64,000 bases of DNA, taken from positions 3,478 to 67,477 of the forward strand of contig MNTB01000034.1 of the NCBI GenBank assembly GCA_001916775.1. The letters run 5' to 3'. This DNA is from Firmicutes bacterium CAG:321_26_22 (GTDB taxonomy: Bacteria > Bacillota_I > Bacilli_A > RF39 > UBA660). Under the pieces are notes generated by a model. It was not told where the DNA came from and did no database searches. It saw nothing but the letters and a program-made list of their open reading frames with translations. The position numbers and the translations under genes were made by a program. Numbering within the stretch: position 1 is the first letter of the stretch; the number at the start of each line of letters is the position of its first letter. Positions 919 through 33,043 of the stretch are shown here, piece after piece.

Positions 919-1190
919 TATTTACCTTGCTTTAAATTATGGTATTTTTCCATAATTCCTGCTTTACTAAATAAATTTTTAACTGTATCAGTAGGTATTG
1001 CACCATTGTTAAGCCATTTAATTGCAGATTCTTCATTTAATTTAATTTCTGCTGGTGTTGTTAATGGATTATAAGTACCGATTGTATCGATAAATCTTCC
1101 ATCTCTTGGACTTCTAGAGTCTGCTACTACTACACGGTAGAAAGGTGCTTTCTTTGCTCCCATTCTTTTTAATCTAATTTTAACTGCCAT
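918..1190 (-). CDS. rpsP: 30S ribosomal protein S16
   Basis: [34 protein letters not shown] is the canonical S16 N-terminus. Confidence 0.9.
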
Positions 1191-1214
1191 ATTTATCCCT
1201 CGCTTTCTTTATGT

Positions 1215-1243
1215 ATTTTATCACAAAAAAAATATACTGTCAA
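1215..1243 (-). promoter_or_regulatory. sigma-A-type promoter for rpsP (TTGACA-17-TAAAAT on minus strand)
   Basis: rc of 1238-1243 is TTGACA and rc of 1215-1220 is TAAAAT, with a 17-nt spacer. GAGGG RBS before the rpsP ATG. Confidence 0.5.
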
Positions 1244-2589: not shown

Positions 2590-2667
2590 TCCTTACTATT
2601 ATAATAATACCAAATTATTAGTAGTTTTTCAAGTATTTTTATATGTTTAATTTAAATTTTTATACCT

Positions 2668-2722
2668 TTCATGAAATGCCTAAGTCATTTCATGTCATTA
2701 CTAGCCTATTCTATAGTCTAGT
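2668..2722. repeat. dispersed intergenic element, type 'CATGAAATG hairpin + CTAGCCT..AGTCTA hairpin' (copy 1 of 3)
   Basis: ttcatgaaatgcctaagtcatttcatgtc...ctagcctattctatagtctag. Near-identical architecture at 27180 and 51192. Confidence 0.6.
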
Positions 2723-2851
2723 AATGAATAACTATAAGATATTATATTCATGGTGAAATACTTTCTAACTTAGATAATTCCAAATAAAAAGAAAGATAAC
2801 TAGTATCTTTATAGTTAGAATATCTTGGTAATATTTTATATAATTTTTTTA

Positions 2852-2887
2852 TGATAGAGACTATTATATAGGCTCTATCATACCGCG
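2852..2887. repeat. dispersed intergenic hairpin element TGATAGAG-ACTATTATATAGG-CTCTATCA(TACCGCG)
   Basis: Inverted near-identical copy at 13706-13740 (tgatagTgactattatataggctctatca). Related copies at 6360, 42185, 56863. Confidence 0.6.
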
Positions 2888-2934
2888 TAAAACATAAACT
2901 TGTTTATGGTTGAAGTGGCAAAAAAAGAATAAAT

Positions 2935-3144
2935 TTACATAAACTTATTCATTTGTTTCATCATTTGATTTACTTGTTTTTGAGATGGTGTCCTTCCCAT
3001 CTGACTCATCATAGTCTTAATCATTTGCTCATTAATAGGAGGATTCTTTTTTAATTCTTTTTTCATTAATTTTCTAGCTACTAGAAAACCAATAACTAAT
3101 CCTACTACTAAACCTATTACTATATATAATATATCCCAAAGCAT
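2935..3144 (-). CDS. yneF: UPF0154 family membrane protein (YneF-like)
   Basis: [25 protein letters not shown]...[31 protein letters not shown] matches the conserved UPF0154/YneF sequence. Confidence 0.8.
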
Positions 3145-3165
3145 ATTATTCTCTCCTCTCTATAG

Positions 3166-3603
3166 TTATTGTACTATTAAATTATTATTTTGTAAAGAAT
3201 TTAATTTAGATAGCCAAAAATAATCCATATTTTTAAAATCACAGACAAATAAATTGTTATTATAATTATTTATATCATTAAAGAAAATACTATAGTTATT
3301 TTCTGTTTCTATCTTAATATTATAATTATTTATTCTTAAAATACTCTTATCAGTTGTATTTAAATAATGAATATTATCTTTTCTCTTATATCCATATTTA
3401 TATTTATATTCATTATAAATATATTCATTTAACATTATCTTATTAAAAGGATTTGCTATTTCTTCTAATACATGATAGGCTTTAATACTATTATAATCTC
3501 TAGAATAATATATTTCCTCAAATATTTTATACATCTTAAAAGGTTTATCTTTATACATATAACTATAATATTTATTAACATTAAAAATATAGTATGTTCT
3601 CAT
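3166..3603 (-). CDS. hypothetical Tyr/Asn-rich protein
   Basis: 145-aa ORF with strong low-complexity Y/N/K composition; no recognisable motif. Confidence 0.35.
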   Translation of the reverse strand: MRTYYIFNVNKYYSYMYKDKPFKMYKIFEEIYYSRDYNSIKAYHVLEEIANPFNKIMLNEYIYNEYKYKYGYKRKDNIHYLNTTDKSILRINNYNIKIETENNYSIFFNDINNYNNNLFVCDFKNMDYFWLSKLNSLQNNNLIVQ

Positions 3604-3653: not shown

Positions 3654-5654
3654 TTATAAATTATTCTTTATTTTTATTACTAAATCAGTCATATCTAATT
3701 CAAAGAAATTTAATACTTCTTTTTCACTACCACTCTTACCAAAGGTTGGTATGTTAACAAAATCTTCATCAGATGAGATAAAGCGATACCAATTGGCATC
3801 ATTTGATAATTCTATAACCATACGACGATATCCTGTTGGTAAGACCTGCTCCTGATAATCTTTGTCTTGTTTTAGGAATAAATTCATATTGGGCATTGAT
3901 ACTACTCTGGCTTCAATATAATTCTTTAGTAATTCTTCTTTTATATTAACCGCTAATTCTACTTCACTACCTGTTGCTATTATTACTAAATCTAATCTTG
4001 TTCTTACTTCGCTAATTACGTAACCACCACGCGCTACTTTATTTGGATTAGTGTATTTCATTGTGTTGTTATGACCACGAGGTAATATTAAGGCTGATGG
4101 TTTACCTTCTCTTAGAATATTTGTCCAAGAACCCATTAGTTCTTTATAATCAGCAGGTCTATATACTGATAAATTAGGTATACTTCTTAAGGCTCCTAGT
4201 TGTTCTACTGGCTCGTGAGTTGGTCCATCCTCTCCTACTCTAACACTATCATGAGTAAAGATATATGTTACTGGTAAGTTCATCATGGCACTCATTCTAA
4301 TAGATGGTTTCATATAATCAGAAAAGGCTAAGAATGTACTTCCATAACTACGAATATTAGTTAAGGCTAAACCATTTAAGACCGCTCCCATAAGATTCTC
4401 TCTAACACCAAAGTTAATATTACGACCAGAATAATCATCTACTGAAAACTCATTCTTTCCTTTTAGATATGTCTTAGTACTACAGAATAAATCAGCTGAA
4501 CCTCCCATAAAGTTTGGTATAAAGGTACTAATAACATTCATTATTTGATAATTTATATCACGCATTGCTTTATCTTCAAATATCTTACTAGTATCAATAA
4601 CTGCTGCTATATCAAGAGATATTTTTTCATTTTCTATTACTAAATTTATTTTATCTCTTTCACTATCAGTAGCATTAGCTATATACATTTCATATTCAGA
4701 ATACCAATTGCGATAATAATCTTCAGTTCCATCTTTAATAAACTTCATAGCATTATTTCTGTCATTTTCACTATAGGTAAAGGCTGGTCCTCCTTTTAAT
4801 TTTGTTCTTATTTCTTCTAAGTCTTCTTTTTCTAAATTAGAATGAATACGATTAGTTCCTTCATACTTAGAATATATACCTAGGGTTGTTTTTATTTCTA
4901 TTAATACTGGTTTCTTACTCTTTTTGGCTTTTTCGATAGCATTAGATATTTCACCAATATTTTCGCCATCTTTTACTTTAATTACTTCCCAGTTCATTGA
5001 AGCAAATCTATCAGGAATATTTTCATACATAGCTTTATCTAAATCACCATCAGCAGTTACACCATTGGAGTCATATAGAACAATTAAATTATCTAAGCCT
5101 AGATTGCCCGCTAGGGAAGCTGCTTCATAAGATATTCCTTCCATTAGGTCACCATCAGATACTAAGGTATATATCTTATAGTCAAAGACAATGTTTTTCT
5201 TTTTATTAAAGGTGCTTTCTAAATATTTTTCACCAATAGCTAATCCTACTGATGTAGCAAAGCCTTCTCCTAATGGACCTGTTGTTACTTCAATACGATT
5301 GTTTAAATTATATTCAGGATGACCAGTACACTGAGAATTTATTTTACGAAAGTTTTTTAATTCTTCTAGATTAAATTCATCTAATAAATAATATAATGTA
5401 CTATATAATAAGGCTGAACCATGACCTGCACTTAATACAAATCTATCTCTATTACACCATGCTTTTCTTTCTAAATCAAATTTTAGGTGATATGCAAATA
5501 GTGTATATAGTGTGGGAGCAGCATCTAGAGCTATTCCTGGATGACCAGATCCCGCTGCATTTATCATATCTAATGCTAATAATCTTATATCATTTACAAT
5601 TCTTTTTTCATTTAGTTTCATATTTCTACCTACCTTATAATTTAATTCTATCAT
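3654..5654 (-). CDS. tkt: transketolase
   Basis: LDMINAAGSGHPG TPP-binding motif and a 666-aa length typical of Tkt. The true start may be the internal MKLNEK. Confidence 0.9.
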   Translation of the reverse strand: MIELNYKVGRNMKLNEKRIVNDIRLLALDMINAAGSGHPGIALDAAPTLYTLFAYHLKFDLERKAWCNRDRFVLSAGHGSALLYSTLYYLLDEFNLEELKNFRKINSQCTGHPEYNLNNRIEVTTGPLGEGFATSVGLAIGEKYLESTFNKKKNIVFDYKIYTLVSDGDLMEGISYEAASLAGNLGLDNLIVLYDSNGVTADGDLDKAMYENIPDRFASMNWEVIKVKDGENIGEISNAIEKAKKSKKPVLIEIKTTLGIYSKYEGTNRIHSNLEKEDLEEIRTKLKGGPAFTYSENDRNNAMKFIKDGTEDYYRNWYSEYEMYIANATDSERDKINLVIENEKISLDIAAVIDTSKIFEDKAMRDINYQIMNVISTFIPNFMGGSADLFCSTKTYLKGKNEFSVDDYSGRNINFGVRENLMGAVLNGLALTNIRSYGSTFLAFSDYMKPSIRMSAMMNLPVTYIFTHDSVRVGEDGPTHEPVEQLGALRSIPNLSVYRPADYKELMGSWTNILREGKPSALILPRGHNNTMKYTNPNKVARGGYVISEVRTRLDLVIIATGSEVELAVNIKEELLKNYIEARVVSMPNMNLFLKQDKDYQEQVLPTGYRRMVIELSNDANWYRFISSDEDFVNIPTFGKSGSEKEVLNFFELDMTDLVIKIKNNL

Positions 5655-6453: not shown

Positions 6454-7713
6454 GTACGTTTGTAAATGATGTGAAACAATATTTTTTGTAAAAATGACTC
6501 AATTTGATTATTGGGTTGTTTTTTTCTTTGCTACTATATAAATAACACAGAAATGAATTTAGTCAATGATTAACGTTAGTTAAATTTATTTTGCATTGAC
6601 TAAAGAAATGAATGTGTTATGCTGTACAAGCAAAGAAACAATTAATTCTTTTCTTTTTTCTAATGGCGTTAAATAATTTAAACAAGCCATTGGTATTTTA
6701 TTACTTCTTTCTAAATATGCTTTTCCTTTTTCTCTTAAGTCTTCTAAATTATTAATTATTAATGTATTGTAAAACCTCTCGTTATCATTTCTGTGACTTC
6801 TTTCTACTTTTCCATTATGTCTTGGAGTTCTTGGTCTTATTTTGTGATGATCTATATCCAACTTTAAGCACAAATCATCTAAAGGATGTAGCTTTTTCAT
6901 TTTGCTTTGATTCCAAGTAAACTCTGTACCATTATCAGTTTGTATTTCTGAAGGTTTATATTCAAAATAAGAAATACATCTTTTTACAAAATCTACGGTA
7001 TTGGCAGGAGTATGTTCATCATACCAATATAAAAACCTTTCCCTTGTTGCTTCATCAATGCATGTATATTGATAATATTTCTTATCTAACGGTACTTTGT
7101 CACTTAAGCATATAGAAGGAACATATTTAACATCTATTTGCCATTTTTCACCAAGCATACTAGGTGTAAAATACTTTTTAGGAATATATTTAGAAGTTCC
7201 AGTAATATTAATTTGTTTATAGTAACCTAATTTTCTCATTACTCTATATAAGCTACCAATGTTTCTTTTATATCCTTTATTTATTCTTAATTTATACCAT
7301 ATTTCGCCAAGAGTAAGATTATCATTTTTATGTCTCTTTAACAAATCTTTTATCCATTTTATTTCTTCCTTTGTATGAGCATTAGGATGCGGAGAGTGCG
7401 GTCTATGCGATTTATCCATAAGAGATTCTAATGTACCATCATAAGCTTTATTCCATCTATATAAAGATGTTCTGGAAATATGATATTTTCTTAGCACATA
7501 ACTAATTGAATTTCCATTTCTATAAGTTTTTACAGCATTTTCACGAGTTTTAATATCGTGTGGCAAATATCTTTTGCTTTTTTCTTTATTTTCATTTATA
7601 ATATTCATAGTGATTCAAGTCCTTTCAAAATAATATTTTTGGTTCAACTCAATATTATACAACTTGAATCACTTTTTTTGTATAGAAATGTTTCGCATCA
7701 ATTGTAACACAAC
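6454..7713 (-). mobile_element. Insertion sequence (IS481 / ISNCY-IS1202-like) with ~27-bp imperfect terminal inverted repeats, flanked by a 27-bp direct repeat
   Basis: Single DDE transposase ORF. Imperfect IRs GTACGTTTGTAAATGATGTGAAACAAT (6454-6480) versus rc of 7687-7713 GTTGTGTTACAATTGATGCGAAACATT (18/27 matches). Direct repeat AAAAGAAAGAACTCTTATTTATTAATT at 6427-6453 and 7714-7740. Confidence 0.75.
6586..7608 (-). CDS. DDE transposase (rve integrase core; IS481/IS1202-group-like) with N-terminal HTH
   Basis: KWQIDVKYV (D), IQTDNGTEFT (D), RPRTPRHNGKVERSHRN (E) form an integrase-core DDE triad. N-terminal HTH (YVLRKYHISRTSLYRW). Confidence 0.8.
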   Translation of the reverse strand: MNIINENKEKSKRYLPHDIKTRENAVKTYRNGNSISYVLRKYHISRTSLYRWNKAYDGTLESLMDKSHRPHSPHPNAHTKEEIKWIKDLLKRHKNDNLTLGEIWYKLRINKGYKRNIGSLYRVMRKLGYYKQINITGTSKYIPKKYFTPSMLGEKWQIDVKYVPSICLSDKVPLDKKYYQYTCIDEATRERFLYWYDEHTPANTVDFVKRCISYFEYKPSEIQTDNGTEFTWNQSKMKKLHPLDDLCLKLDIDHHKIRPRTPRHNGKVERSHRNDNERFYNTLIINNLEDLREKGKAYLERSNKIPMACLNYLTPLEKRKELIVSLLVQHNTFISLVNAK

Positions 7714-7727
7714 AAAAGAAAGAACTC

Positions 7728-9125
7728 TTATTTATTAATTTTATAAGTAGTTCCTTCTCTTGTATCAATTAATTCTATACCTTTAGTTAATAGTTCATCT
7801 CTAATAGCATCTGATAAAGCATAATCTTTATTTTGTTTAGCTATTTTTCTTTCTTCTATTTTATCTTGAATATATTTTTCTAGTTCTGAATCTATATTAT
7901 TATCTTCTTTAATTAAGTCAAGGCTTAATATTTTATCAAAGTCTTCAATTAAATATCTTTTTGTAGTACCATTTACGGTATCATCTTTTATTAAATCATA
8001 TAGTATTGTTATACTATTAGCGGTATTTAAGTCATTAGATAATTCTTCTTTAAATCTATCTTGATATTCTTTTACTTTATCTTCTTGGAGACTACCTTCT
8101 TCTTTAATTAAAGATATCTTATTTATTAATTTATTATATTGATTTTGTACTTGTTCTAAAACAGAATATGAGAAGACTAATTGTTTACGATAATGACTTA
8201 ATAAACACATAAATCTAAAGGCTAATGGATTATAACCATTTTCTTTTAAAACACTTACTGATAAGACTGCTCCTTTACTCTTACTCATTTTACCTGATTC
8301 ATCCATAAGATGTTCATTATGAAACCAATAATTACACCATTTATGTCCTAGATATGCTTCACTTTGAGCTATTTCATTAGTATGATGTGGGAAGATATTA
8401 TCTACTCCTCCACCATGAATATCAAGATGTTCACCAAGATATTTTAAACTAATTCCGGTACATTCTATATGCCAACCGGGATAACCTACTCCAAATGGTG
8501 AATCCCATTTTAAATCTTGATCTTCAAACTTACTCTTAGTAAACCATAGGGCAAAGTCCGCTTGATTTCTCTTATTATCATCAAAGTCTACTCCTTCACG
8601 AACTCCAACGACCATATCATCTTCTTTATGGTTAGTTAATTTATAGTAATCTTCTAATTTACTTACATCAAAGTAAACATTACCTCCGGCTTCATAAGCA
8701 TAACCATCCTCTAGTAACTTGGATATTATTTTAATATATTCATCAATATTATCGGTAGCAGGACTTACTACATCTGGTCTACGACAATTTAACATATCAA
8801 AATCTTTAAAGAAAGCATCAGTATAAAATTTGGCTATATCCATAACTGATTTATGTTCTTTCTTAGCACTAGCTACCATTTTATCTTCACCAGAGTCAGA
8901 GTCACTCTTTAAATGTCCAACATCAGTAATATTCATTACTCTTTTTACATCATAGCCTAAATATCTTAAGGTCTTATCTAAAATATCATGACCTATATAA
9001 TTACGCATATTACCTATATGAGCATAATGATATACTGTTGGGCCACATGTATAGAAACCTACTTTATTACCTTCATATGGTATAAATTCTTCTTTTTGTC
9101 TTGTTAATGTGTTATATAATTTCAT
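7728..9125 (-). CDS. cysS: cysteine--tRNA ligase
   Basis: Class I aaRS HIGH-like (HIGN) and KMSKS (GKMSKSKG) motifs; 465 aa. The zinc-binding Cys context is typical of CysRS. Confidence 0.92.
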   Translation of the reverse strand: MKLYNTLTRQKEEFIPYEGNKVGFYTCGPTVYHYAHIGNMRNYIGHDILDKTLRYLGYDVKRVMNITDVGHLKSDSDSGEDKMVASAKKEHKSVMDIAKFYTDAFFKDFDMLNCRRPDVVSPATDNIDEYIKIISKLLEDGYAYEAGGNVYFDVSKLEDYYKLTNHKEDDMVVGVREGVDFDDNKRNQADFALWFTKSKFEDQDLKWDSPFGVGYPGWHIECTGISLKYLGEHLDIHGGGVDNIFPHHTNEIAQSEAYLGHKWCNYWFHNEHLMDESGKMSKSKGAVLSVSVLKENGYNPLAFRFMCLLSHYRKQLVFSYSVLEQVQNQYNKLINKISLIKEEGSLQEDKVKEYQDRFKEELSNDLNTANSITILYDLIKDDTVNGTTKRYLIEDFDKILSLDLIKEDNNIDSELEKYIQDKIEERKIAKQNKDYALSDAIRDELLTKGIELIDTREGTTYKINK

Positions 9126-9159
9126 TTTAATCCTCCTAATTATTATATTTTTATTTATT

Positions 9160-9191
9160 ATATAAAAGAACTTATCTATTATGATAAGTCC
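9160..9191 (-). terminator. intrinsic terminator in cysS leader (GGACUUAUC-AUAAUA-GAUAAGUUC-UUUUAU)
   Basis: 9-bp stem (8 WC + 1 GU) followed by a U-run on the minus-strand transcript. Lies between the leader ORF and the cysS RBS (TAGGAGG). Confidence 0.5.
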
Positions 9192-9203
9192 TCTTCGTAT
9201 ACT

Positions 9204-9287
9204 TTATTTATCTTGTAAGCATAAGGAAATAGACCTATCATTTAATAGATCTTGACAACACATTTTATTAGTAGTAAGTCTATTCAT
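9204..9287 (-). CDS. putative cysS leader peptide (27 aa: MNRLTTNKMCCQDLLNDRSISLCLQDK) with tandem Cys codons
   Basis: Small ORF with an AGGAAGAG RBS, downstream of promoter TTGACT-17-TAAAAT (9314-9342) and upstream of the terminator. Contains UGU UGU plus UGC codons; segments for alternative hairpins are present. Confidence 0.35.
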   Translation of the reverse strand: MNRLTTNKMCCQDLLNDRSISLCLQDK

Positions 9288-9313
9288 AGTATCTCTTCCT
9301 TTCTTACAATATT

Positions 9314-9342
9314 ATTTTATAATAAATTATTTATTTAGTCAA
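9314..9342 (-). promoter_or_regulatory. sigma-A-type promoter of the cysS leader (TTGACT-17-TAAAAT)
   Basis: rc of 9337-9342 is TTGACT, rc of 9314-9319 is TAAAAT, spacer 17 nt. Confidence 0.5.
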
Positions 9343-9376
9343 TTATTATTTCTTATTCCTGTTAAATAATTCGTAA

Positions 9377-10228
9377 TTAGTTCTTTTTCTTTATTATTTT
9401 TTTATCTTTATTATAATTATATTTTTGATATAATTCTTTCTTACTATCTAAATCAATCATTGGAGCATCTTTTACTAAAACTACAAAAGCAGATGTAGCA
9501 TAGTTTTCTTTAAATGTTCTATATAGACTTTTTTCTATATAATAATTATCTTCTTCTTCATATTCATTTCCTATATATTTAAATATTATGTTACCAGTAT
9601 ATACTTCAGGATTAGGAAAGGTATAATCTTCATTTAGTTCTTCTTCGGTAATATAATAACCACTTTGATAATTATAATTAGTAAGCATATATCTATCTAG
9701 ATTATAATATTTATCTAGTACTTTTAGTATAGTATCATTATTAATATGTTTTCTTCTTACATAAGATAATATTTTCCATACTGTAAAAGTTGGCATTTTC
9801 TTTAAATGCATATTCTTTTGTCTTTGATACTCTAAAGCATTTATTATATTATTAAATGCTTCTAGGTAGACTTGATTATTCTTTACGGCTTCAATATGTC
9901 TATATAGGTCTGTCTCCTCCAAAGGAAGATCTCCTAGTATAAAGTCTTCATATAATTCTACTATTTCTGGATTAACATCTTTAAATAAATAATATTTATA
10001 TGTACTTTCATTCATGTTTTTAATAACATTTTCAAGACTATCTACTATTTGTTTATTTGTTTTTGTTTTATCATATGGTGACTTTTCGTATTTTCTTTTT
10101 ATTTTTTCTAACTCTTGTTTTCTTTTATTTGGTTTATCCTCCACTATATTAATACACATGGCAAGTATTAATTCTTTATTTTCATATAAATAACTATATC
10201 TTCTTATTAATTCTTCTTTAATGTCCAT
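9377..10228 (-). CDS. hypothetical protein
   Basis: 283-aa ORF, K/E/Y-rich, with no recognisable motif. Confidence 0.4.
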   Translation of the reverse strand: MDIKEELIRRYSYLYENKELILAMCINIVEDKPNKRKQELEKIKRKYEKSPYDKTKTNKQIVDSLENVIKNMNESTYKYYLFKDVNPEIVELYEDFILGDLPLEETDLYRHIEAVKNNQVYLEAFNNIINALEYQRQKNMHLKKMPTFTVWKILSYVRRKHINNDTILKVLDKYYNLDRYMLTNYNYQSGYYITEEELNEDYTFPNPEVYTGNIIFKYIGNEYEEEDNYYIEKSLYRTFKENYATSAFVVLVKDAPMIDLDSKKELYQKYNYNKDKKIIKKKN

Positions 10229-10395: not shown

Positions 10396-11478
10396 TTACT
10401 TATTTTGTAATAATTCATTTAAATATTCATTATCAGAAAAGTAGTTTAGTTTCATTGCTTCTTTTACTTCTTCTAATGTTTTATTGGCTTTATTAGATGC
10501 CTTGGTGGTACCTTCCTTTAAAATATTATATACTTCTTCAATGTTATTAGCATATTTTTTTCTTCTTTCTCTGATAGGAGTTAATTCATCGTTTATTACT
10601 TCAGTTAGGAATTTTTTTATGGTAACATCTCCTATTCCACCTTTTTGATAGGCTTTTTTTAAGGATTCTAAGTTTTGAAACTCTGGATAATACTTTTGAA
10701 AATGGGTATCAGTACAAAAGGCTTCTAAATAAATGAAGAGAATATTGTCTTTAAGTATTCCTGGTTCTTCTACTTTTCTAGATGTTGTTTTTATACTAAA
10801 TATTTTTTCTTTTATTATTTCTTTTTCATCAGATAAATAAATACAATTATTTAACGATTTACTCATCTTAGTATTTCCATCGGTGCCTACAAGTCTTCTT
10901 TGATAAATATTATCAGGTAATATTGATGTACATTCTTGTAAGACATTAGTTTTATATATTCGATTAAATGCTCTTACTATTTCTCTTGTTTGTTCAATCA
11001 TAGGTTCTTGATCATCTCCTACTGGTATTATATTAGCTTTGAAGGCTGTTATATCAGCGGCTTGACTTATTGGATATGCTGTAAAACCTACGGGAATGCT
11101 ATCTTTGAATTTTTTGGCGTTTAATTCACTTTTTACTGTAGGATTTCTAAATAGTCTATTTATTGTTACTAGATTCATGTAATAGTAGGTTAATTCTGTT
11201 AAGGCACTTACTCCTGATTGAACAAAGAATGTTACTTTACTTGGATCTAGGCCTACTGCCAAATAATCAAGCATTACTTCTATTACATTTTTTCTTACTT
11301 TATCTGGATTATCAAAATTATCAGTTAAAGCTTGTGAATCCGCTATCATAATATAAAATTCATCATAATTCCCTTCTTCTTGTAATTTATATCTTCTTTT
11401 TAAAGACCCAACATAATGTCCTATATGTAATCTACCTGTTGGTCTATCTCCTGTTAAAATTATATTTTTCATTTTCAT
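10396..11478 (-). CDS. trpS: tryptophan--tRNA ligase
   Basis: TGDRPTGRLHIGHYVGSL (HIGH) and KMSKS motifs; 360 aa as typical for TrpRS. Confidence 0.92.
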   Translation of the reverse strand: MKMKNIILTGDRPTGRLHIGHYVGSLKRRYKLQEEGNYDEFYIMIADSQALTDNFDNPDKVRKNVIEVMLDYLAVGLDPSKVTFFVQSGVSALTELTYYYMNLVTINRLFRNPTVKSELNAKKFKDSIPVGFTAYPISQAADITAFKANIIPVGDDQEPMIEQTREIVRAFNRIYKTNVLQECTSILPDNIYQRRLVGTDGNTKMSKSLNNCIYLSDEKEIIKEKIFSIKTTSRKVEEPGILKDNILFIYLEAFCTDTHFQKYYPEFQNLESLKKAYQKGGIGDVTIKKFLTEVINDELTPIRERRKKYANNIEEVYNILKEGTTKASNKANKTLEEVKEAMKLNYFSDNEYLNELLQNK

Positions 11479-11563
11479 CTTCCTCTCTTTCTATATTTAT
11501 AAATTATTTAATTAAACACCACCGTTTACTTAATATACTCATAACAACCTCCTATTAAATATA

Positions 11564-11594
11564 CAAAAAAGACCTACCTAATAAAGATAAGTCT
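11564..11594 (-). terminator. intrinsic terminator in trpS leader (AGACUUAUC-UUUAUUA-GGUAGGUCU-UUUUUU)
   Basis: 9-bp stem (7 WC + 2 GU) plus U6 on the minus transcript, positioned between the leader ORF and the trpS RBS. Confidence 0.5.
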
Positions 11595-11624
11595 ATAAAT
11601 TACATTAATAATATTTATATTAAT

Positions 11625-11705
11625 TTAATTCCACGAGTAAATAGACTTATCTTCAAATAAGTCTAGCCAGCTATTTAATTTAACTAAAACTATATTTATT
11701 TTCAT
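11625..11705 (-). CDS. putative trpS leader peptide (26 aa: MKINIVLVKLNSWLDLFEDKSIYSWN) with two Trp codons
   Basis: AGAGGAG RBS 7 nt before the ATG, downstream of promoter TTGACA-17-TAAAAT (11731-11759). Segments 1-4 can form 1:2, 2:3 and 3:4 alternative hairpins. UGG at codons 13 and 25. Confidence 0.4.
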   Translation of the reverse strand: MKINIVLVKLNSWLDLFEDKSIYSWN

Positions 11706-11730
11706 AGTCTATCTCCTCTTTCTTATCTAG

Positions 11731-11759
11731 ATTTTAGTACTTTTTTATTACTTTGTCAA
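11731..11759 (-). promoter_or_regulatory. sigma-A-type promoter of the trpS leader; the same ~29-bp promoter block is repeated at 12848-12873 upstream of the methyltransferase gene
   Basis: TTGACA (rc 11754-11759) - 17 nt - TAAAAT (rc 11731-11736). Block ttttattactttgtcaatatttttatttt is duplicated at 12846-12874. Confidence 0.5.
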
Positions 11760-11842
11760 TATTTTTATTTTATCTTTTGATTTATCTTGTCAATTTCTTT
11801 TTTTAAATGTTACATTGTTAAATAATCTTAACATATTTATGT

Positions 11843-12610
11843 TTACTTTCTAGCATATATTCCATAGTATCTTCTTACTAATCTTATGCCACTAGGATAT
11901 GTATTTCTTTCAATATATTTATTTAATTTTTCTTCATCTAACTTGCTTTGATAGTGATCCTTGATATCACCTTGTTCTTCAGAAAAATCATCAATGATTG
12001 GAACTTTTAAGAGAAAATTATATAAGCTTTCTCTTGTTTTAAAGTATTCTCTAACATGGATTGGTATTAGTTCAACATCTTTGAAACCTGCTGATATGAT
12101 ATTTTCATAATCTATTATACTTATTGGTTTGGTATCTTTGAAAGCTTGACCTTTACCAAAGATTAGTTTCAGTTCATAGCAGTCATATTTATCTACTCCG
12201 TGAACTAGTAAATGACCATCTTCTTTTAGAAAGTAATATATTTGTTTAGCATCTATAGGAGTGTTTCTGGCCACTACTACGTCATAATATTTATCTGGAA
12301 CATCCATTAATAAATTATCCATTACTTTAAAAGTTATATTCTTACGTCCACTTTGTAATAAGTTCTCTTTAGCAGTCTTTATCATTGCTTCTGAATAATC
12401 TGTTCCTAGTATTTCTGAGACTTCGGGAAAATATTTTAATAGTTTTTCTCCACCACCTGTACCTAAGTCTAGTATTCTTGAATTTTTATTTGTTATTTTT
12501 CTTAGAATACTATATAGATCCCAATTTGTTAATTTTTCACTTATTATGTTAAAAGTACTGAAATCCCAATTTTTTATTTCTTCATAATATTTTTGCTCAT
12601 TTATTTTCAT
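11843..12610 (-). CDS. class I SAM-dependent methyltransferase
   Basis: Motif I ILDLGTGGGEKLL and an acidic motif-II region; 255 aa. Confidence 0.75.
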   Translation of the reverse strand: MKINEQKYYEEIKNWDFSTFNIISEKLTNWDLYSILRKITNKNSRILDLGTGGGEKLLKYFPEVSEILGTDYSEAMIKTAKENLLQSGRKNITFKVMDNLLMDVPDKYYDVVVARNTPIDAKQIYYFLKEDGHLLVHGVDKYDCYELKLIFGKGQAFKDTKPISIIDYENIISAGFKDVELIPIHVREYFKTRESLYNFLLKVPIIDDFSEEQGDIKDHYQSKLDEEKLNKYIERNTYPSGIRLVRRYYGIYARK

Positions 12611-17654: not shown

Positions 17655-18746
17655 TTAGATAAGTAATAGTTCTATTCCCTTATCTAGTATATTATTCGCA
17701 GCATTATAATCTCTATCATGCATGCTATCGCATCTAGGACATTGCCAAGTTCTTATACTATAATCTTTTATTTTTTTATTTTGATAGCCACAGTTATTGC
17801 ATAACTGACTAGATGGATAATATCTACCTACCTTTATTAACCTTCTTCCGTACCATCTTGCTTTATATTCTAACATATTAATAAACTTAGATATAGATAT
17901 ATCTCCAAGTACTTTGGCTATATTCTTATTTTGAAACATTTCTTTAACATTTAAATCTTCTACTACTATAACTTGGTTTTCGTTTATAATACTAGTACTT
18001 AATTTATGTAAGAAATCATTTCTAACATTATTACATTTATCATATAGTTTATTAATTTTATTTTCTATTTTTTTATAATTATTACTGCCTTTCATTTTTA
18101 AAGAAAGGCTTTTTTGTAATCTGCCTATTTTGTCATAAGTATTCATTAATTTTTTGGGAGCATTATATATGTTATTAGAACTATCATGAACAAAATTACT
18201 AACTCCCATATCTATTCCTACTATGTAACTATTAGTTTCTAACTTTTTAATTTCTTTTCTAACTAATATCATTACTTTATATTTATTATTACTATATTTT
18301 TTTATTGTAGCATTAATAATAGTACCTTCTACTTTTCTATGTACTTTAGTGGGTACTTTGCCTAGTTTAGGTAATTTAATGTAATTATCTAACACTTCTA
18401 TATTATTATTAGTATAATTAGTTTGATAAGATTCTCCTTTGTTCTTCTTTTTAAATCTAGGTTTACTACCTAATTTGTTCATATATCTTTTATAAGCATT
18501 ATCTAAATTATAAATAGCATTAGTAATAGCAAACTTATCTACTTCTTTAAGCCAAGGATATTCTGCTTTTAACTCTCTATTACATATGTTATTATTTGTA
18601 TACTTTGAGCTATAACCATTACTATTAGAATAATCTAAAAAATAATTATAGATAAATCTACAGCATCCAAAAGTTTTAGCAATTAAAACAATTTGTTCTT
18701 CATTAGGATAAATCCTAAAACTATAAGTATACTCCATAAATAACAC
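17655..18746 (-). CDS. tnpB: IS200/IS605 family TnpB (OrfB, RuvC-like RNA-guided endonuclease family)
   Basis: N-terminal OrfB_IS605 region and a C-terminal zinc finger CNNCGYQNKK...CPRCDSMHDRDYNAANNI. Confidence 0.88.
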   Translation of the reverse strand: MLFMEYTYSFRIYPNEEQIVLIAKTFGCCRFIYNYFLDYSNSNGYSSKYTNNNICNRELKAEYPWLKEVDKFAITNAIYNLDNAYKRYMNKLGSKPRFKKKNKGESYQTNYTNNNIEVLDNYIKLPKLGKVPTKVHRKVEGTIINATIKKYSNNKYKVMILVRKEIKKLETNSYIVGIDMGVSNFVHDSSNNIYNAPKKLMNTYDKIGRLQKSLSLKMKGSNNYKKIENKINKLYDKCNNVRNDFLHKLSTSIINENQVIVVEDLNVKEMFQNKNIAKVLGDISISKFINMLEYKARWYGRRLIKVGRYYPSSQLCNNCGYQNKKIKDYSIRTWQCPRCDSMHDRDYNAANNILDKGIELLLI

Positions 18747-19142
18747 CTACTTCCCCTGATTAGAAATATATTCTTTAATATTTTCTTCTAGTGTATCACT
18801 AACAGTGGAAACAAAATAAGAAGGATTCCACATATGTCCACCATATAATTCTTTTTTTAATTCTGGATATAATTTAAATAATAGTCTTGCACTTGTGCCT
18901 TTTAACCTTTTTACAATAGTAGGTATATAATGCTGAGGCTTACAACTAATTAACAAGTGAATATGGTCTAAATCTGTATTAATTTCTATTATTTTAAAAT
19001 CCATTTCTTGAGATAGTAATATAATTATCTCAAAAAGTGAATCTTTTACACTATCAGTTAATATTTTTTTACGATATTTAGTACAAAATACTATATGATA
19101 CTCTATACCATATACATATCCTCTTCCTTTAAAAATAATCAT
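18747..19142 (-). CDS. tnpA: IS200/IS605 family Y1 (HuH) transposase TnpA
   Basis: HuH motif HIHLLIS and the conserved Y in ...RLKGTSARLLFK; 131 aa. Confidence 0.88.
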   Translation of the reverse strand: MIIFKGRGYVYGIEYHIVFCTKYRKKILTDSVKDSLFEIIILLSQEMDFKIIEINTDLDHIHLLISCKPQHYIPTIVKRLKGTSARLLFKLYPELKKELYGGHMWNPSYFVSTVSDTLEENIKEYISNQGK

Positions 19143-19435
19143 ATTATCACCATAATAATCATACCATATGTAAGCGTAAAAGTAAATGCTTTTGGAAGCA
19201 AAAAAGGAAAAATCTAACTCACAAATTAATTCACGAGAGTGCGATTTTTAGTTCTTCAAATAAAGAATTATTATGTTTTTCTTCTATTTCTTTTAATAAT
19301 TCTTCTGTAGTAATTTCTTTCATACAAAAAAACCTCTTTCTATTTAAAAGTACCCTTTCACAAAGTGTCTTTATTTTACCACAAAAGAAAATTTTTTACA
19401 ACAAAAAAAGAATAACACTATGTTATCCTTAATTA

Positions 19436-19687
19436 TTATTCTTCAGTTTTTTTAGAAGCTTTTGCTTTTTTAGGAGCTTTTTCCTCAGTTACTTTAGTTT
19501 CTACTACTTTTTTAGAAGTATCTGCTCCTTTATAAAATCCACATTTTGGACATGCTCTGTGAGGTCTAATTTTAGCACCACAGTTAGTACATTCTACTAG
19601 TCCGTTAGCGGTAATTTTATAATGAGTTCTTCTCATATCTCTTCTAGTTTTACTTACTTTTCTAAATGGAACTGCCATCTTCTTCAC
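19436..19687 (-). CDS. rpmF: 50S ribosomal protein L32 (with C-terminal K/E-rich extension)
   Basis: MAVPFRKVSKTRRDMRRTHYKI...CTNCGAKIRPHRACPKCGFY: L32 signature with a zinc-ribbon. Confidence 0.85.
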   Translation of the reverse strand: MKKMAVPFRKVSKTRRDMRRTHYKITANGLVECTNCGAKIRPHRACPKCGFYKGADTSKKVVETKVTEEKAPKKAKASKKTEE

Positions 19688-19694
19688 TCCTTCC

Positions 19695-32437: not shown

Positions 32438-32579
32438 CTTTCCTACTCATAATATATTCTACCACATTTTTTTATATTTTAAAATTGTTTTTGTAATAAA
32501 AATATTTTTTTTTAAAAAGTGTATATAAAAATCAAATATAAATATTGATATTTTTATAACTTTTTAGTATAATGTATAC

Positions 32580-32682
32580 AGGAAGAGAAATTTATCCATA
32601 ATAAAAATGGGTAACACCTAGTTCCAAAAGGTGTTCTCTCCGTAAGTAGATTACGAAGCACCCCCCTGTGGTGCTTCTTTTG
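32580..32682 (+). ncRNA. candidate type I antitoxin sRNA (convergent to and overlapping the 3' UTR of the small toxin ORF)
   Basis: Promoter TTGATA (32545-32550) - 17 nt - TATAAT (32568-32573). Hairpins AACACC..GGUGUU and CGUAA..UUACG, and terminator GAAGCACC-CCCCUGU-GGUGCUUC-UUUUG ending 2 nt before the toxin stop codon. No ORF. Confidence 0.4.
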
Positions 32683-32683
32683 T

Positions 32684-32761
32684 CTATTTTCTATGCATCA
32701 TATTGCCTATATAGACAATAGTGATAAGAGTAATCCAAGCAAATGCAAGGACTAGTTCCAT
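32684..32761 (-). CDS. candidate type I toxin: 25-aa hydrophobic peptide MELVLAFAWITLITIVYIGNMMHRK
   Basis: GGAGG RBS 9 nt upstream of the ATG. Single predicted TM helix plus a basic C-terminus. Own promoter TTGACT (rc 32903-32908) - 17 nt - TACAAT (rc 32880-32885) with a ~110-nt 5' UTR. 3' UTR fully antisense to the plus-strand sRNA. Confidence 0.4.
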   Translation of the reverse strand: MELVLAFAWITLITIVYIGNMMHRK

Positions 32762-33043
32762 TACTCAAACCTCCAACCCCCTAAGAAGTAAAAAAGTTCT
32801 TTCATCATAGACGTCACCCCTTTCTCTTAGGAATACTAAGAAATTGGAGAGAATACACCATGTAAGTGTTACCTAAATAATTGTACTATAGTTTCACTTA
32901 ATAGTCAATATAATATGGCTATTTATTTTTATTTTATATATACATACAAATGTATATATTACTATCATAAGAAAGGCATTAGACTTTCTTATGATATAAA
33001 AGACCTATAAGAACTTATAACAAAAAACAAGATAAACCTTAGG

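Follow-up and report, generated by a model that had tools for sequence, protein, structure and literature searches.

The experimentally established precedent for attenuation on an aminoacyl-tRNA synthetase (aaRS) gene is the pheST attenuator (pheM) of Escherichia coli, a gamma-proteobacterium, in which the leader peptide carries five Phe codons. In the E. coli trpL attenuator, which belongs to a biosynthetic operon, the stop codon is placed so that the terminating ribosome masks segment 2. The T-box (RF00230) binds uncharged tRNA directly via a specifier codon and the T-box sequence, and translation is not needed. A system already described upstream of cysS itself is the uORFC-8-2 motif, a prediction from Rhodobacterales (Brewer et al. 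2021, PMC8632094). Classical attenuators were also predicted for trpS and leuS of Streptomyces (Seliverstov et al. 2005, PMC1262725); the same paper cites the pheST attenuator, states that the aaRS genes of Firmicutes mostly have T-boxes and that 'none' has classical attenuation, and describes short ORFs with consecutive Cys codons before cys operons, which control cysteine biosynthesis, not cysS. According to a preprint (bioRxiv 10.1101/834739), polycysteine leaderless short ORFs of mycobacteria are Cys-responsive attenuators. Here we present the features of a leader upstream of cysS in a Bacilli metagenome-assembled genome (MAG) of 26% GC, together with its comparison to these systems; the window is the whole analyzed stretch of 64,000 nucleotides.

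The cysS leader resembles uORFC-8-2 in its target gene, in having a uORF with a conserved AUG and tandem Cys codons (UGC or UGU), and in two stems that end in a U-run terminator, with a proposed stall at the Cys codons leading to read-through. The two differ in their hosts (alpha-proteobacteria versus AT-rich gut Bacilli) and in the place of the Cys codons, which are at positions 14-15 and inside the first stem in uORFC-8-2, but at positions 10-11 and just 5' of stem 1 in the present leader. Unlike uORFC-8-2, the present family includes a paralogue specific for Trp, and its leaders carry a second cognate codon. No sequence relationship between the two could be shown, the comparison being with the published description of uORFC-8-2. 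With pheST the leader shares an aaRS operon as target, a leader peptide rich in cognate codons and terminator/antiterminator alternatives, whereas pheST is Phe-specific, has a run of five Phe codons and is without sequence similarity to the cysS leader. The Streptomyces trpS and leuS elements likewise place cognate-codon leader peptides and terminator/antiterminator structures before aaRS genes of a Gram-positive organism, and the Streptomyces trpS leader has Trp codons as does the trpS paralogue reported below, but these elements are from GC-rich Actinobacteria and of unrelated sequence. From trpL are known the 1:2 / 2:3 / 3:4 four-segment design, pairing between the leader RBS and sequence further down the leader, and tandem regulatory codons placed such that a stalled ribosome masks segment 1, all of which have a counterpart here. 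The likeness to the T-box lies in the input (tRNA charging), the output (terminator versus antiterminator) and the target genes. Consecutive Cys codons and the sensing of cysteine supply through ribosome movement are shared with the mycobacterial short ORFs, which differ by their position on cysteine biosynthesis operons, their leaderless mRNAs and the lack of an obvious intrinsic terminator. Attenuators of this kind are already known from pheST, from the predictions for Streptomyces trpS and leuS, and from the predicted tandem-Cys uORF with terminator in Rhodobacterales (PMC8632094). The cysS and trpS leaders described here are a new family in AT-rich gut Bacilli, bacteria in which T-boxes are usual, and are unrelated to the known ones, uORFC-8-2 having been compared by description.

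Organization of the cysS leader

The element is a module of ~150 nt between the promoter and the cysS RBS. A promoter / leader peptide / terminator architecture had originally been predicted before cysS from the nucleotide sequence, and every element then listed is present on the minus strand (Table 1). The regulated gene matches TIGR00435 cysS with 470.9 bits against a cutoff of 340.

Table 1. Positions of the features of the cysS leader and of the paralogous trpS leader in the window
Feature	Sequence	Position	Strand	Remark
cysS leader promoter	-35 TTGACT, -10 TAAAAT	9342..9337, 9319..9314	-	spacer 17
Shine-Dalgarno (SD) of leader ORF	AAGGAAGAG	9301..9293	-	
cysS leader ORF	MNRLTTNKMCCQDLLNDRSISLCLQDK	9287..9204	-	27 codons and stop
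Tandem Cys codons 10-11	TGT TGT	9260..9255	-	proposed stall site; Cys-Cys in 5/5 variants
Cys23 codon	TGC	9221..9219	-	second cognate codon; Cys in 5/5 cysS variants
Segment 1	AGATCTATT; conserved AGAUCUAU(U)	9252..9244	-	begins 3 nt past the Cys codons
Segment 2	GATAGGTCT	9239..9231	-	partners: segment 1, segment 3 or leader SD region
Segment 3	GGACTTATC	9191..9183	-	5' arm of terminator and 3' arm of antiterminator
Segment 4	GATAAGTTC	9176..9168	-	with segment 3, predicted intrinsic terminator
U-run	TTTTATAT	9167..9160	-	tail of predicted intrinsic terminator
cysS RBS	AGGAGG	9137..9132	-	SD
cysS		9125..7728	-	465 aa; regulated gene; ATG at 9125
trpS attenuator (predicted)		11565..11759	-	promoter 11759..11731
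trpS leader ORF	MKINIVLVKLNSWLDLFEDKSIYSWN	11705..11625	-	
Trp13 codon		11669..11667	-	
Trp25 codon		11633..11631	-	
trpS leader segment 1		11665..11657	-	
trpS leader segment 2		11651..11641	-	
trpS leader segment 3		11596..11586	-	
trpS leader segment 4		11578..11570	-	followed by T6

The promoter proposed at 9314-9342 is sigma-70-like, with 10/12 consensus matches in the promoter scan of the window, and recurs as TTGACTAAATA...TA(A/C)AAT in five orthologous loci (L172, L201, L202, L209 and the leaderless L204). As the AT-rich region has no excess of promoter-like sites (32 found vs 33.9 expected), little can be concluded about this promoter from the scan by itself. Locus L001 is collinear with the window from ~9351, just upstream of the promoter. 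The proposed 27-codon ORF with UGU-UGU and UGC was found as described. Its SD is kept in all variants (GGAAGAG, GGGAAGAG or GGAAAGAG) and is able to pair with an anti-SD, TTTCCTT, within the ORF ('segment 0'), a pairing that is seen in the minimum-energy folds. Among the 321 short ORFs (15-40 aa) of the window, two (0.6%) have tandem Cys codons together with a third Cys, and ten (3.1%) have two or more Trp codons.

Conservation among orthologous leaders

Five distinct orthologous cysS leaders were found, in loci whose CysS is 84-99% identical to that of the window; these ~5 independent variants all belong to one narrow clade. The tandem Cys codons and a third Cys codon 12 codons later are kept in 5/5 leaders, as had to be expected from the original prediction, and they vary synonymously (TGT TGT or TGC TGT for the tandem, TGC or TGT for Cys23), whereas the five codons after the tandem differ (QDLLN / FRSIY / KTLLK / SDLFY). 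The metagenome pattern that retrieved L172 and L158 did not contain the regulatory codons, so for these loci the comparison of Cys codons is unbiased. The orthologous leader peptides are ...SLCLTR (L001-type), MNRLTISRRCCQDLLNDRSISLCLIK (L209), MSRFNTNNKCCFRSIYDRSISSCLIK (L172), MNKMEVNNKCCKTLLKDRSISLCLKMI (L201) and MNRLNNADSNCCSDLFYDRSISSCLFR (L202). The N-terminal third of the peptide is poorly conserved. A 1-nt frameshift separates the window from 11 same-species copies and alters the last residues of the peptide. Five cysS and four trpS variants retain SD, ATG and reading frame, and indels within the leader ORF are all multiples of 3 nt, whereas those past the stop codon are not. Judged by the retained SD and start codon and by the indel pattern, the leader ORF looks translated, and Cys10, Cys11 and Cys23 appear to supply the cognate codons of a classical attenuator.

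The leader accompanies cysS under varied upstream genes, namely a glycosyltransferase (L200), a CotE-domain gene (L201) and a peptidase S51 (L202); in L172, L209 and L211 the upstream gene is trpS. Among 80 cysS loci of GTDB species representatives the leader was found only in L001 (same species), the remaining loci having short promoter-only or operonic upstream regions. The close relatives L002, L204, L205, L206 and L207 (CysS 82-87%) are without it, and this patchy presence indicates that the leader is dispensable. Of the 119 loci from the metagenome pattern scan 14 are real, the rest being mostly chance matches (marine, soil and other samples). No other gene with a family member was found by nhmmer and the covariance model in 603 kb of related DNA, glyS of L210 is without a leader, and a plasmid search with cysS gave zero matches. 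The 8-mer AGACTTAT shared by the two leaders was considered as a genome-wide repeat and rejected (10 found vs 7.1 expected). The paired core motif is specific (3 found vs 0.14 expected) and, within the window, confined to the cysS and trpS leaders.

The paralogous trpS leader

A common RNA family with the leader of trpS had been suggested and was borne out by in-frame comparison, according to which the cysS and trpS leaders are paralogues, codon by codon. Their in-frame nucleotide identity is 59% at a codon offset of +2 and 21-36% (~28%) at nine other offsets. In this alignment Cys11 stands opposite Trp13 and Cys23 opposite Trp25, with TGY against TGG at both trpS Trp codons; the difference in specificity between the leaders is thus the third base of two codons, UGG versus UGY. 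The conserved segment 1 of the cysS leader and that of the trpS leader are homologous. Both Trp codons are kept in four distinct trpS leader variants (L172/L158/L142/L211, L209 and L210 orthologues). Downstream of the trpS terminator there is a further conserved cognate-codon mini-ORF (SKRWC); SD sequestration by this mini-ORF was rejected, being absent from the folds. The only aaRS genes among the 34 larger annotated ORFs of the window are cysS and trpS, both with a cognate-codon leader, and no aaRS or amino-acid biosynthesis gene was found among the other 32.

Secondary structure and alternative helices

The whole cysS leader folds better than shuffled sequences (z = -3.9; 0/200 shuffles as good). 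By folding, the window leader has a 1:2 hairpin of -8.4 kcal/mol, a 2:3 antiterminator helix of -15.9 to -17.8 kcal/mol and a 3:4 terminator hairpin of -13.7 kcal/mol, the flanking A/U extension included. Three mutually exclusive helices (1:2, 2:3 and 3:4) are present in all leader variants, with energies of -5.3 to -9.6, -10.4 to -20.8 and -10.9 to -14.8 kcal/mol, respectively. The terminator predicted at 9160-9191, ahead of the cysS RBS, agrees with the 3:4 hairpin, which with its U-run UUUUAUAU qualifies in silico as an intrinsic terminator. It is absent from the list of a simple terminator scan, probably because of the stem and tail rules of that scan. Being AU-rich and followed by four U and then A, the terminator may be weak.

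The original prediction had drawn the 1:2 pairing between codons 2-4 and codons 17-20. This pairing is possible in the window but not conserved, L201 having AAUAAAAUGGAA; codons 2-4 were rejected as the conserved segment 1, their sequence being kept neither in L201 nor in L202. The proposed 2:3 alternative was found in every variant, with 93.9% of cells paired vs <=49% when the partners were slid; two-sided pair changes are absent from this helix, as segment 2 hardly varies across the cysS/trpS leader family. In helix 1, 97.8% of cells are paired across 15 distinct sequences, with one two-sided pair change (C-G / U-A). For the 1:2 and 3:4 helices together, 96.7% of cells are paired vs <=53% with slid partners, and three pairs are altered on both sides, a covariation that rests on few lineages and on an alignment that was fitted to the model. 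One compensatory change, U-A to C-G, is seen in the L202 terminator arms GAACCTATC/GGTAGGTTC. The same two hairpins (1:2 and 3:4) were predicted by RNAalifold.

A ribosome whose A site is at Cys10 or Cys11 would cover most or all of segment 1 with its footprint of ~30 nt; the folds thus predict both an antiterminator and a maskable segment 1, as in a classical attenuator. Folded without a ribosome, 14/15 distinct sequences show the terminator. Masking both the 5' region and the stalled ribosome led to its loss in 12/15 distinct sequences; with the 5' UTR masked along with the ribosome, L172 still had it and L202 was ambiguous. In equilibrium folds with the ribosome masked at the Cys codons alone, segment 2 finds a partner in the leader SD region and the terminator persists, the antiterminator being the minimum-energy fold only with the 5' UTR occupied as well.

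Searches for known RNA families

At the gathering threshold no Rfam family overlaps the leader in the window or in 54 related loci. The T-box (RF00230) was unmatched in the window, in sensitive E<=10 scans of 9000..9500 and 11450..11850, and in the 54 related loci. The sole match in the E<=10 scan of 9000..9500 was SAM-SAH at 9442..9467, outside the leader; the SAM-SAH (E=6.8) and HIV_GSL3 (E=2.5) matches were rejected as chance-level. As a positive control, the T-box model detected a true T-box on cysE-cysS in L208 with 107.6 bits. An overlapping T-box or other riboswitch, one of the findings that had been named as speaking against a leader-peptide mechanism, was thus encountered at neither threshold.

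Proposed mechanism

We interpret the element, with a probability of roughly 0.8, as a classical ribosome-mediated (leader-peptide) transcription attenuator that controls cysS by charged tRNA(Cys); the comparative data support the idea of an amino-acid-matched leader attenuator put forward originally. Alongside the observed anatomy, conservation, amino-acid match and alternative helices, we infer leader translation, stalling and the direction of regulation as follows. Transcription would start ~7 nt past the -10 box, and a ribosome would load at the leader SD and translate the 27-codon ORF before RNA polymerase has left the leader. With Cys-tRNA(Cys) plentiful, the ribosome would run through, segment 1 (AGAUCUAUU) or the leader SD region would sequester segment 2 (GAUAGGUCU), the 3:4 terminator would form and most transcripts would stop at the U-run, before cysS. 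With Cys-tRNA(Cys) scarce, the ribosome would stall when codons 10-11 (UGU-UGU) occupy its A/P sites, and its footprint would cover segment 1, which begins 3 nt downstream. Segment 2 would then be free as segment 3 emerges, so that the 2:3 antiterminator could form, segment 4 would be left partnerless and the polymerase would enter cysS. Extra CysRS would restore charging, which would make this a negative feedback loop.

The stop codon of the cysS leader lies 8-9 codons beyond segment 2, unlike that of trpL, and termination must therefore rely on the 1:2 (or SD:2) pairing re-forming behind the ribosome. A stall at Cys23 should favor termination, and the attenuator model gives this codon no role; roles via segment 1:4 pairing, SD unmasking or ribosome queuing were considered and none was convincing. 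More tentatively, the cysS and trpS leaders could belong to a compact, re-targetable attenuator module that stands in place of T-boxes on aaRS genes, and that is maybe also a two-checkpoint device. Such a module may have arisen in the small-genome gut Bacilli lineage, and its amino-acid specificity may have been re-programmed by single-base UGG to UGY changes at two codons. What points to two checkpoints is the conserved second cognate codon near the stop, a stall at which would oppose the first, and the trpS mini-ORF SKRWC past the terminator; this may be a design not described for classical attenuators.

Alternative explanations

The alternative that survives best, an unlikely one, is that the choice between terminator and antiterminator is set by an RNA-binding protein, by uncharged tRNA or by a small ligand, with the ORF being incidental or a helper. 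It would fit that conservation within the element is highest in segment 2 and its partners, that RNA pairing, with the covarying pair included, fully accounts for the conserved peptide core D-R/K-S-I, and that masking the ribosome alone does not switch the equilibrium folds of the cysS leader. However, the sole systematic difference between the cysS and trpS leaders consists of cognate codons at two in-frame positions, where synonymous change is kept, and SD, ATG and reading frame survive indels. The Rfam families, T-box included, are unmatched, and conserved loops or junctions resembling a ligand pocket are not apparent.

Somewhat less probable still is an action mainly on translation or mRNA stability (coupling or RBS access), in which the hairpin would be a stabilizer or processing site. 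The shortness of the U-run is in keeping with such an action, and so are terminator-free Cys-codon mini-ORFs that abut the cysS SD in distant relatives; in L009 the sequence directly past UGU-UGC pairs with the cysS SD. By these observations translational Cys-codon control of cysS seems present in the wider group. The cysS SD of the window, by contrast, lies 23 nt past the U-run and stays free of pairing in both the minimum-energy and the masked folds, which thus give no sign of the SD sequestration that characterizes translational attenuation (erm/cat-type). Moreover, hairpin and U-run are retained in all variants, a compensatory change included, and the mutually exclusive 2:3 helix makes sense only for a termination decision.

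That the leader encodes a functional small peptide (a TnaC-type nascent-chain sensor or a released regulator), so that peptide sequence and not codon-specific stalling is decisive, is very improbable. The C-terminal half, (C/W)xxLxxD(R/K)SIxx(C/W), is common to both paralogues, and second functions of leader peptides are known, e.g., for peTrpL (bioRxiv 10.1101/606483), but the conserved residues are those encoded by segment 2 and the anti-SD, the R/K difference corresponds to one side of a base pair that covaries, and the N-terminal half and C-terminus vary freely, up to the 1-nt frameshift within the species.

Just as improbable, and largely refuted by the conservation data, is that the ORF arose by chance in an ordinary AT-rich 5' UTR, or belongs to a terminator-bearing intergenic element that is repeated or mobile, the Cys codons being meaningless. 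In its favor, UGU is fairly cheap in 26% GC DNA (random-codon probability of Cys 0.023), the leader behaves as a discrete module that a locus either has or lacks, and promoter-like sites are not enriched. Against it, the Cys codons are retained in five diverged variants whose neighboring codons change, the trpS paralogue has Trp in their place, the covariance model found no further copy in the 603 kb of related DNA, the core motif pair is limited to two leaders in the window, and the fold stands out from its shuffles.

Implications

The understanding of attenuation itself is unchanged by the cysS leader, since a functionally equivalent cysS uORF is on record in alpha-proteobacteria. The leader would be a counter-example to the 'none' statement on classical attenuation of Firmicutes aaRS genes (PMC1262725). 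The two-checkpoint features, if true, would allow graded or multi-level sensing of tRNA charging. A covariance model of the cysS and trpS leaders could serve to annotate them in gut metagenomes, and the host gut Bacilli are abundant, uncultured, small-genome organisms that probably depend on imported amino acids. Within one genome, the cysS/trpS pair offers an unusually clear natural example of the re-targeting of an attenuator, for which the evolutionary route would be duplication and point mutation; as the difference in specificity between the homologous leaders comes down in essence to the third base of two codons, both this route and the mechanism are testable by codon swaps.

Leader anatomy and genomic context

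The promoter, leader ORF, terminator and cysS RBS foreseen in the original prediction are all present on the minus strand, in the 251-nt gap between an unannotated ORF and cysS (see the table), and the predicted fold of the leader is more stable than those of shuffled sequences (z = -3.9); the GC content of the window is 26%. The sequence is most closely matched by the MAG of an uncultured gut 'Bacilli' member from a Hadza sample (L001, CAKPIH010000008), whose CysS is 99% identical. Because this otherwise collinear locus has no counterpart of the IS481-family transposase gene, that gene is, by this comparison, a recent insertion just 3' of cysS. The 283-aa ORF gave no Pfam or NCBIfam match and is missing from three related loci (L172, L209 and L211), in which trpS and cysS are adjacent, each behind its own leader. 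Elsewhere in the window, three intergenic gaps of 550-600 nt (2590..3165, 19143..19694 and 32438..33043) contained no ORF of at least 100 aa and no Rfam hit at the gathering threshold.

Features of the cysS-trpS region and of related loci (window positions unless a locus is named)
Feature	Position	Strand	Sequence or remark
trpS leader, Trp25 codon	11631..11633		second cognate codon
trpS mini-ORF	11554..11504	-	SD-led, between trpS attenuator terminator and trpS
trpS	11478..10396	-	
283-aa ORF	10228..9377	-	unannotated, between trpS and cysS
cysS leader -35	9342..9337	-	TTGACT
cysS leader -10	9319..9314	-	TAAAAT
Leader SD	9301..9293	-	AAGGAAGAG
Leader ORF, 27 codons	9287..9204	-	MNRLTTNKMCCQDLLNDRSISLCLQDK
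Segment 1	9252..9244	-	AGAUCUAU(U)
Anti-SD next to segment 2	9229..9223	-	TTTCCTT
cysS leader, Cys23 codon	9219..9221		second cognate codon
Terminator hairpin	9191..9183 / 9176..9168	-	GGACTTATC / GATAAGTTC, then TTTTATAT
cysS SD	9137..9132	-	AGGAGG
cysS	9125..7728	-	
IS481-family transposase gene	7608..6586	-	between cysS and Nudix hydrolase gene
IS200/IS605-type pair	17655..19142	-	Y1 transposase TnpA, 131 aa; OrfB/TnpB-like protein, 363 aa, with Cas12f1-like TNB domain
L208, cysE-cysS behind T-box	3038..3258; 4001..5410		higher-GC contig, 34-40% GC
L009, Cys mini-ORF	2936..2986		MLTKRCCTYFCINNKI
L033, Cys mini-ORF	~2940..2972		MVKRCCIYIT
L041, Cys mini-ORF			MKYNYFRCLCHS
L022, Cys mini-ORF			...NESCCIF

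Conservation and distribution

A sample of 80 GTDB species representatives was uninformative, as the leader was found only in L001, which belongs to the same species. Metagenomes were searched with the core formed by segment 1, loop and segment 2 (the regulatory codons being left out on purpose), which yielded 11 copies that are nearly identical and also a further species (L172/L158/L142), and further loci (L201, L202/L203, L209, L210 and L211) were added through CysS and TrpS homologues. The tandem Cys codons are kept in 5/5 distinct cysS leaders, with both TGT and TGC in use, and a third Cys follows at a constant spacing of 11 codons; the N-terminal third of the peptide varies, as do the five codons past the tandem Cys. 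Loss of the Cys codons from orthologous leaders, which the original prediction named as a refuting outcome, was thus not observed. The peptides end in ...KMCCQDLLNDRSISLCL.. in the window and L001 types and in ...RRCCQDLLNDRSISLCLIK in L209, and read MSRFNTNNKCCFRSIYDRSISSCLIK in L172, MNKMEVNNKCCKTLLKDRSISLCLKMI in L201 and MNRLNNADSNCCSDLFYDRSISSCLFR in L202. Both Trp codons are kept in 4/4 distinct trpS leaders. Indels within the leader ORFs are all multiples of three, whereas those past the stop codon are not, which, along with conservation of the SD and the ATG, is indirect evidence that the ORF is translated. The window itself carries a single-nucleotide deletion close to the leader ORF's 3' end (9204..9215; TTACAAGATAAATAA vs TTAACAAGATAAATAA in L001 and 10 same-species copies), which turns the peptide tail from ...CLTR (stop) into ...CLQDK (stop); stop codons are present in both frames and ORF length is barely altered.

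Where found, the leader goes with cysS regardless of the upstream gene. It is missing from L002, L205, L206 and L207, and also from L204 (CysS identity 82%), an abundant relative with contigs up to 1.15 Mb. L204 (3880..4010, compared with window 9350..9120) matches the window in the promoter, which is homologous, and in the ~35 nt nearest to cysS, and is without the ~150 nt of leader ORF and terminator between them. This makes it a naturally occurring leaderless allele of the locus; leader ORF and terminator therefore behave as a discrete module. In L127, a same-species metagenome contig, unrelated DNA (ATAGGAACTTGAGACTC...) replaces the terminator-to-cysS stretch from ~2430 onward and may be an insertion that parts the attenuator from cysS.

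Paralogy of the cysS and trpS leaders

The key new result is the paralogy, judged by sequence, of these two leaders. When their ORFs are compared in frame, shifted by two codons, nucleotide identity is 59% (21-36% at nine other codon offsets), and this alignment places the tandem Cys codons 10-11 opposite Ser12-Trp13 and Cys23 opposite Trp25, which bears out the proposed common RNA family. Throughout the family alignment, both regulatory positions read 'TG' without exception, and the third base depends on which gene follows (T or C with cysS, G with trpS). The segment 1 originally placed at codons 2-4 is not conserved; homology with the trpS leader, where UAGACUUAU follows Trp13 in matching placement, identifies the true segment 1, beginning 3 nt past the Cys codons. 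Origin of the pair by local duplication would fit the trpS-cysS adjacency. No third member was found over 603 kb with R1, a covariance model built here for the terminated form, and glyS in L210 has no leader. Of the 34 larger ORFs annotated in the window, none but trpS and cysS encodes an aaRS or an enzyme of amino-acid biosynthesis; the suggested scan of such genes yielded, within the window, two genes, each with its cognate leader.

RNA structure and search for known families

Three mutually exclusive helices are possible in every variant, namely 1:2 (-5.3 to -9.6 kcal/mol), 2:3 (-10.4 to -20.8 kcal/mol) and 3:4 plus U-run (-10.9 to -14.8 kcal/mol). When 16 leaders were re-aligned to R1, 96.7% of the cells in the 1:2 and 3:4 helices were paired (37-53% with partners slid). 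In three pairs both partners had changed, once in helix 1 (C-G/U-A) and twice in the terminator (G-C/A-U and U-A/C-G). RNAalifold independently predicted the same two hairpins. The antiterminator was 93.9% paired (28-49% when slid) with one-sided changes only, as expected because segment 2 must suit several partners and is almost invariant. Based on few lineages and on an alignment fitted to the model, these counts show conserved pairing rather than strong covariation.

No Rfam family was found on the cysS leader, either at the gathering threshold over the whole window or at E<=10 over 9000..9500, nor on the trpS leader, and scans of 54 related loci had the same outcome. This negative is meaningful, since the T-box model scored 107.6 bits on a genuine T-box 5' of cysE-cysS in L208; a T-box or other known riboswitch overlapping the leader was not detected by Rfam. 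The L208 CysS is 82% identical to that of the window (typical Lachnospiraceae CysS ~62%), which suggests horizontal transfer of cysS between lineages with different leaders.

Proposed mechanism of attenuation

The anatomy of the cysS leader is that of a classical attenuator, and we put the probability that it is a ribosome-mediated, Cys-tRNA-sensing transcription attenuator at roughly 80%. The original prediction was essentially right in this respect and wrong in the placement of segment 1. A ribosome whose A site is at Cys10 or Cys11 would shield segment 1 entirely or for the most part, leaving segment 2 free to pair with segment 3. Folds computed without a ribosome contained the terminator in 14/15 distinct sequences, and with the stall footprint and 5' region masked it was lost to 2:3 in 12/15. 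With the stall footprint masked alone, cysS leaders retain the terminator, since segment 2, together with the anti-SD next to it, pairs with the leader SD region. This SD-to-ORF pairing would restrict the leader to one round of translation, a limit that such pairing sets in E. coli trpL; during a stall it may be kept from forming by steric hindrance, by the order of synthesis or by a ribosome that is queued or initiating. As the leader stop codon lies 8-9 codons past segment 2, termination under plenty would require 1:2 (or SD:2) to form again once the ribosome has passed, and masking of segment 2 by the terminating ribosome would not be the means.

A second cognate codon is present in every leader variant, about 11-12 codons beyond the first one and 2-5 codons ahead of the stop, and this site has switched between Cys and Trp in parallel with the first. 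In a simple model, a ribosome stalled at this codon would cover segment 2 and make termination likelier.

Cognate-codon mini-ORFs

The very short ORF between the trpS terminator and trpS recurs in L172 (~1190..1225) and 5' of trpS in L209, L210 and L211; its four species variants encode MSILSKRWCLIK, MYIFSKRWCFN, MSILSKRWCLILD and MSILSKRWCLVK. Its Trp codon lies in the loop of a small covarying hairpin (AAAC..GUUU vs AAGC..GCUU), with no obvious sequestration of the trpS SD, and cysS leaders of the same clade are without such a mini-ORF. Four distant relatives (L009, L033, L041 and L022; CysS identity 66-73%) are without the attenuator and have SD-led Cys-codon mini-ORFs directly 5' of cysS, whose 'KR-C-C' is similar to the 'KR-W-C' of the trpS mini-ORF. 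In L009 the stretch just past UGU-UGC pairs with the cysS SD (-18.7 kcal/mol), which suggests translational attenuation of cysS through Cys codons.

Comparison with known attenuators

For aaRS operons, attenuation through a leader peptide is established in E. coli pheST, an example cited in PMC1262725. The same kind of control has been predicted for Streptomyces trpS and leuS (PMC1262725), an uORF with tandem Cys codons and a terminator has been described before cysS in Rhodobacterales (uORFC-8-2, PMC8632094), and His-leader attenuators are predicted for some Firmicutes biosynthetic operons (PMC9413887). The cysS leader would be like these systems in its working but is not related in sequence to any of them that could be compared; the mechanism, and even cysS as its target, is already precedented. 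Among Firmicutes, no aaRS gene has leader-peptide attenuation according to PMC1262725, and no report of one on a Firmicutes aaRS gene was found. What is new is the lineage, the paralogous re-targeting between Trp and Cys and the additional cognate-codon features, all easily testable, with extra interest attached to the codon-swapped pair of paralogues and the second cognate-codon site.
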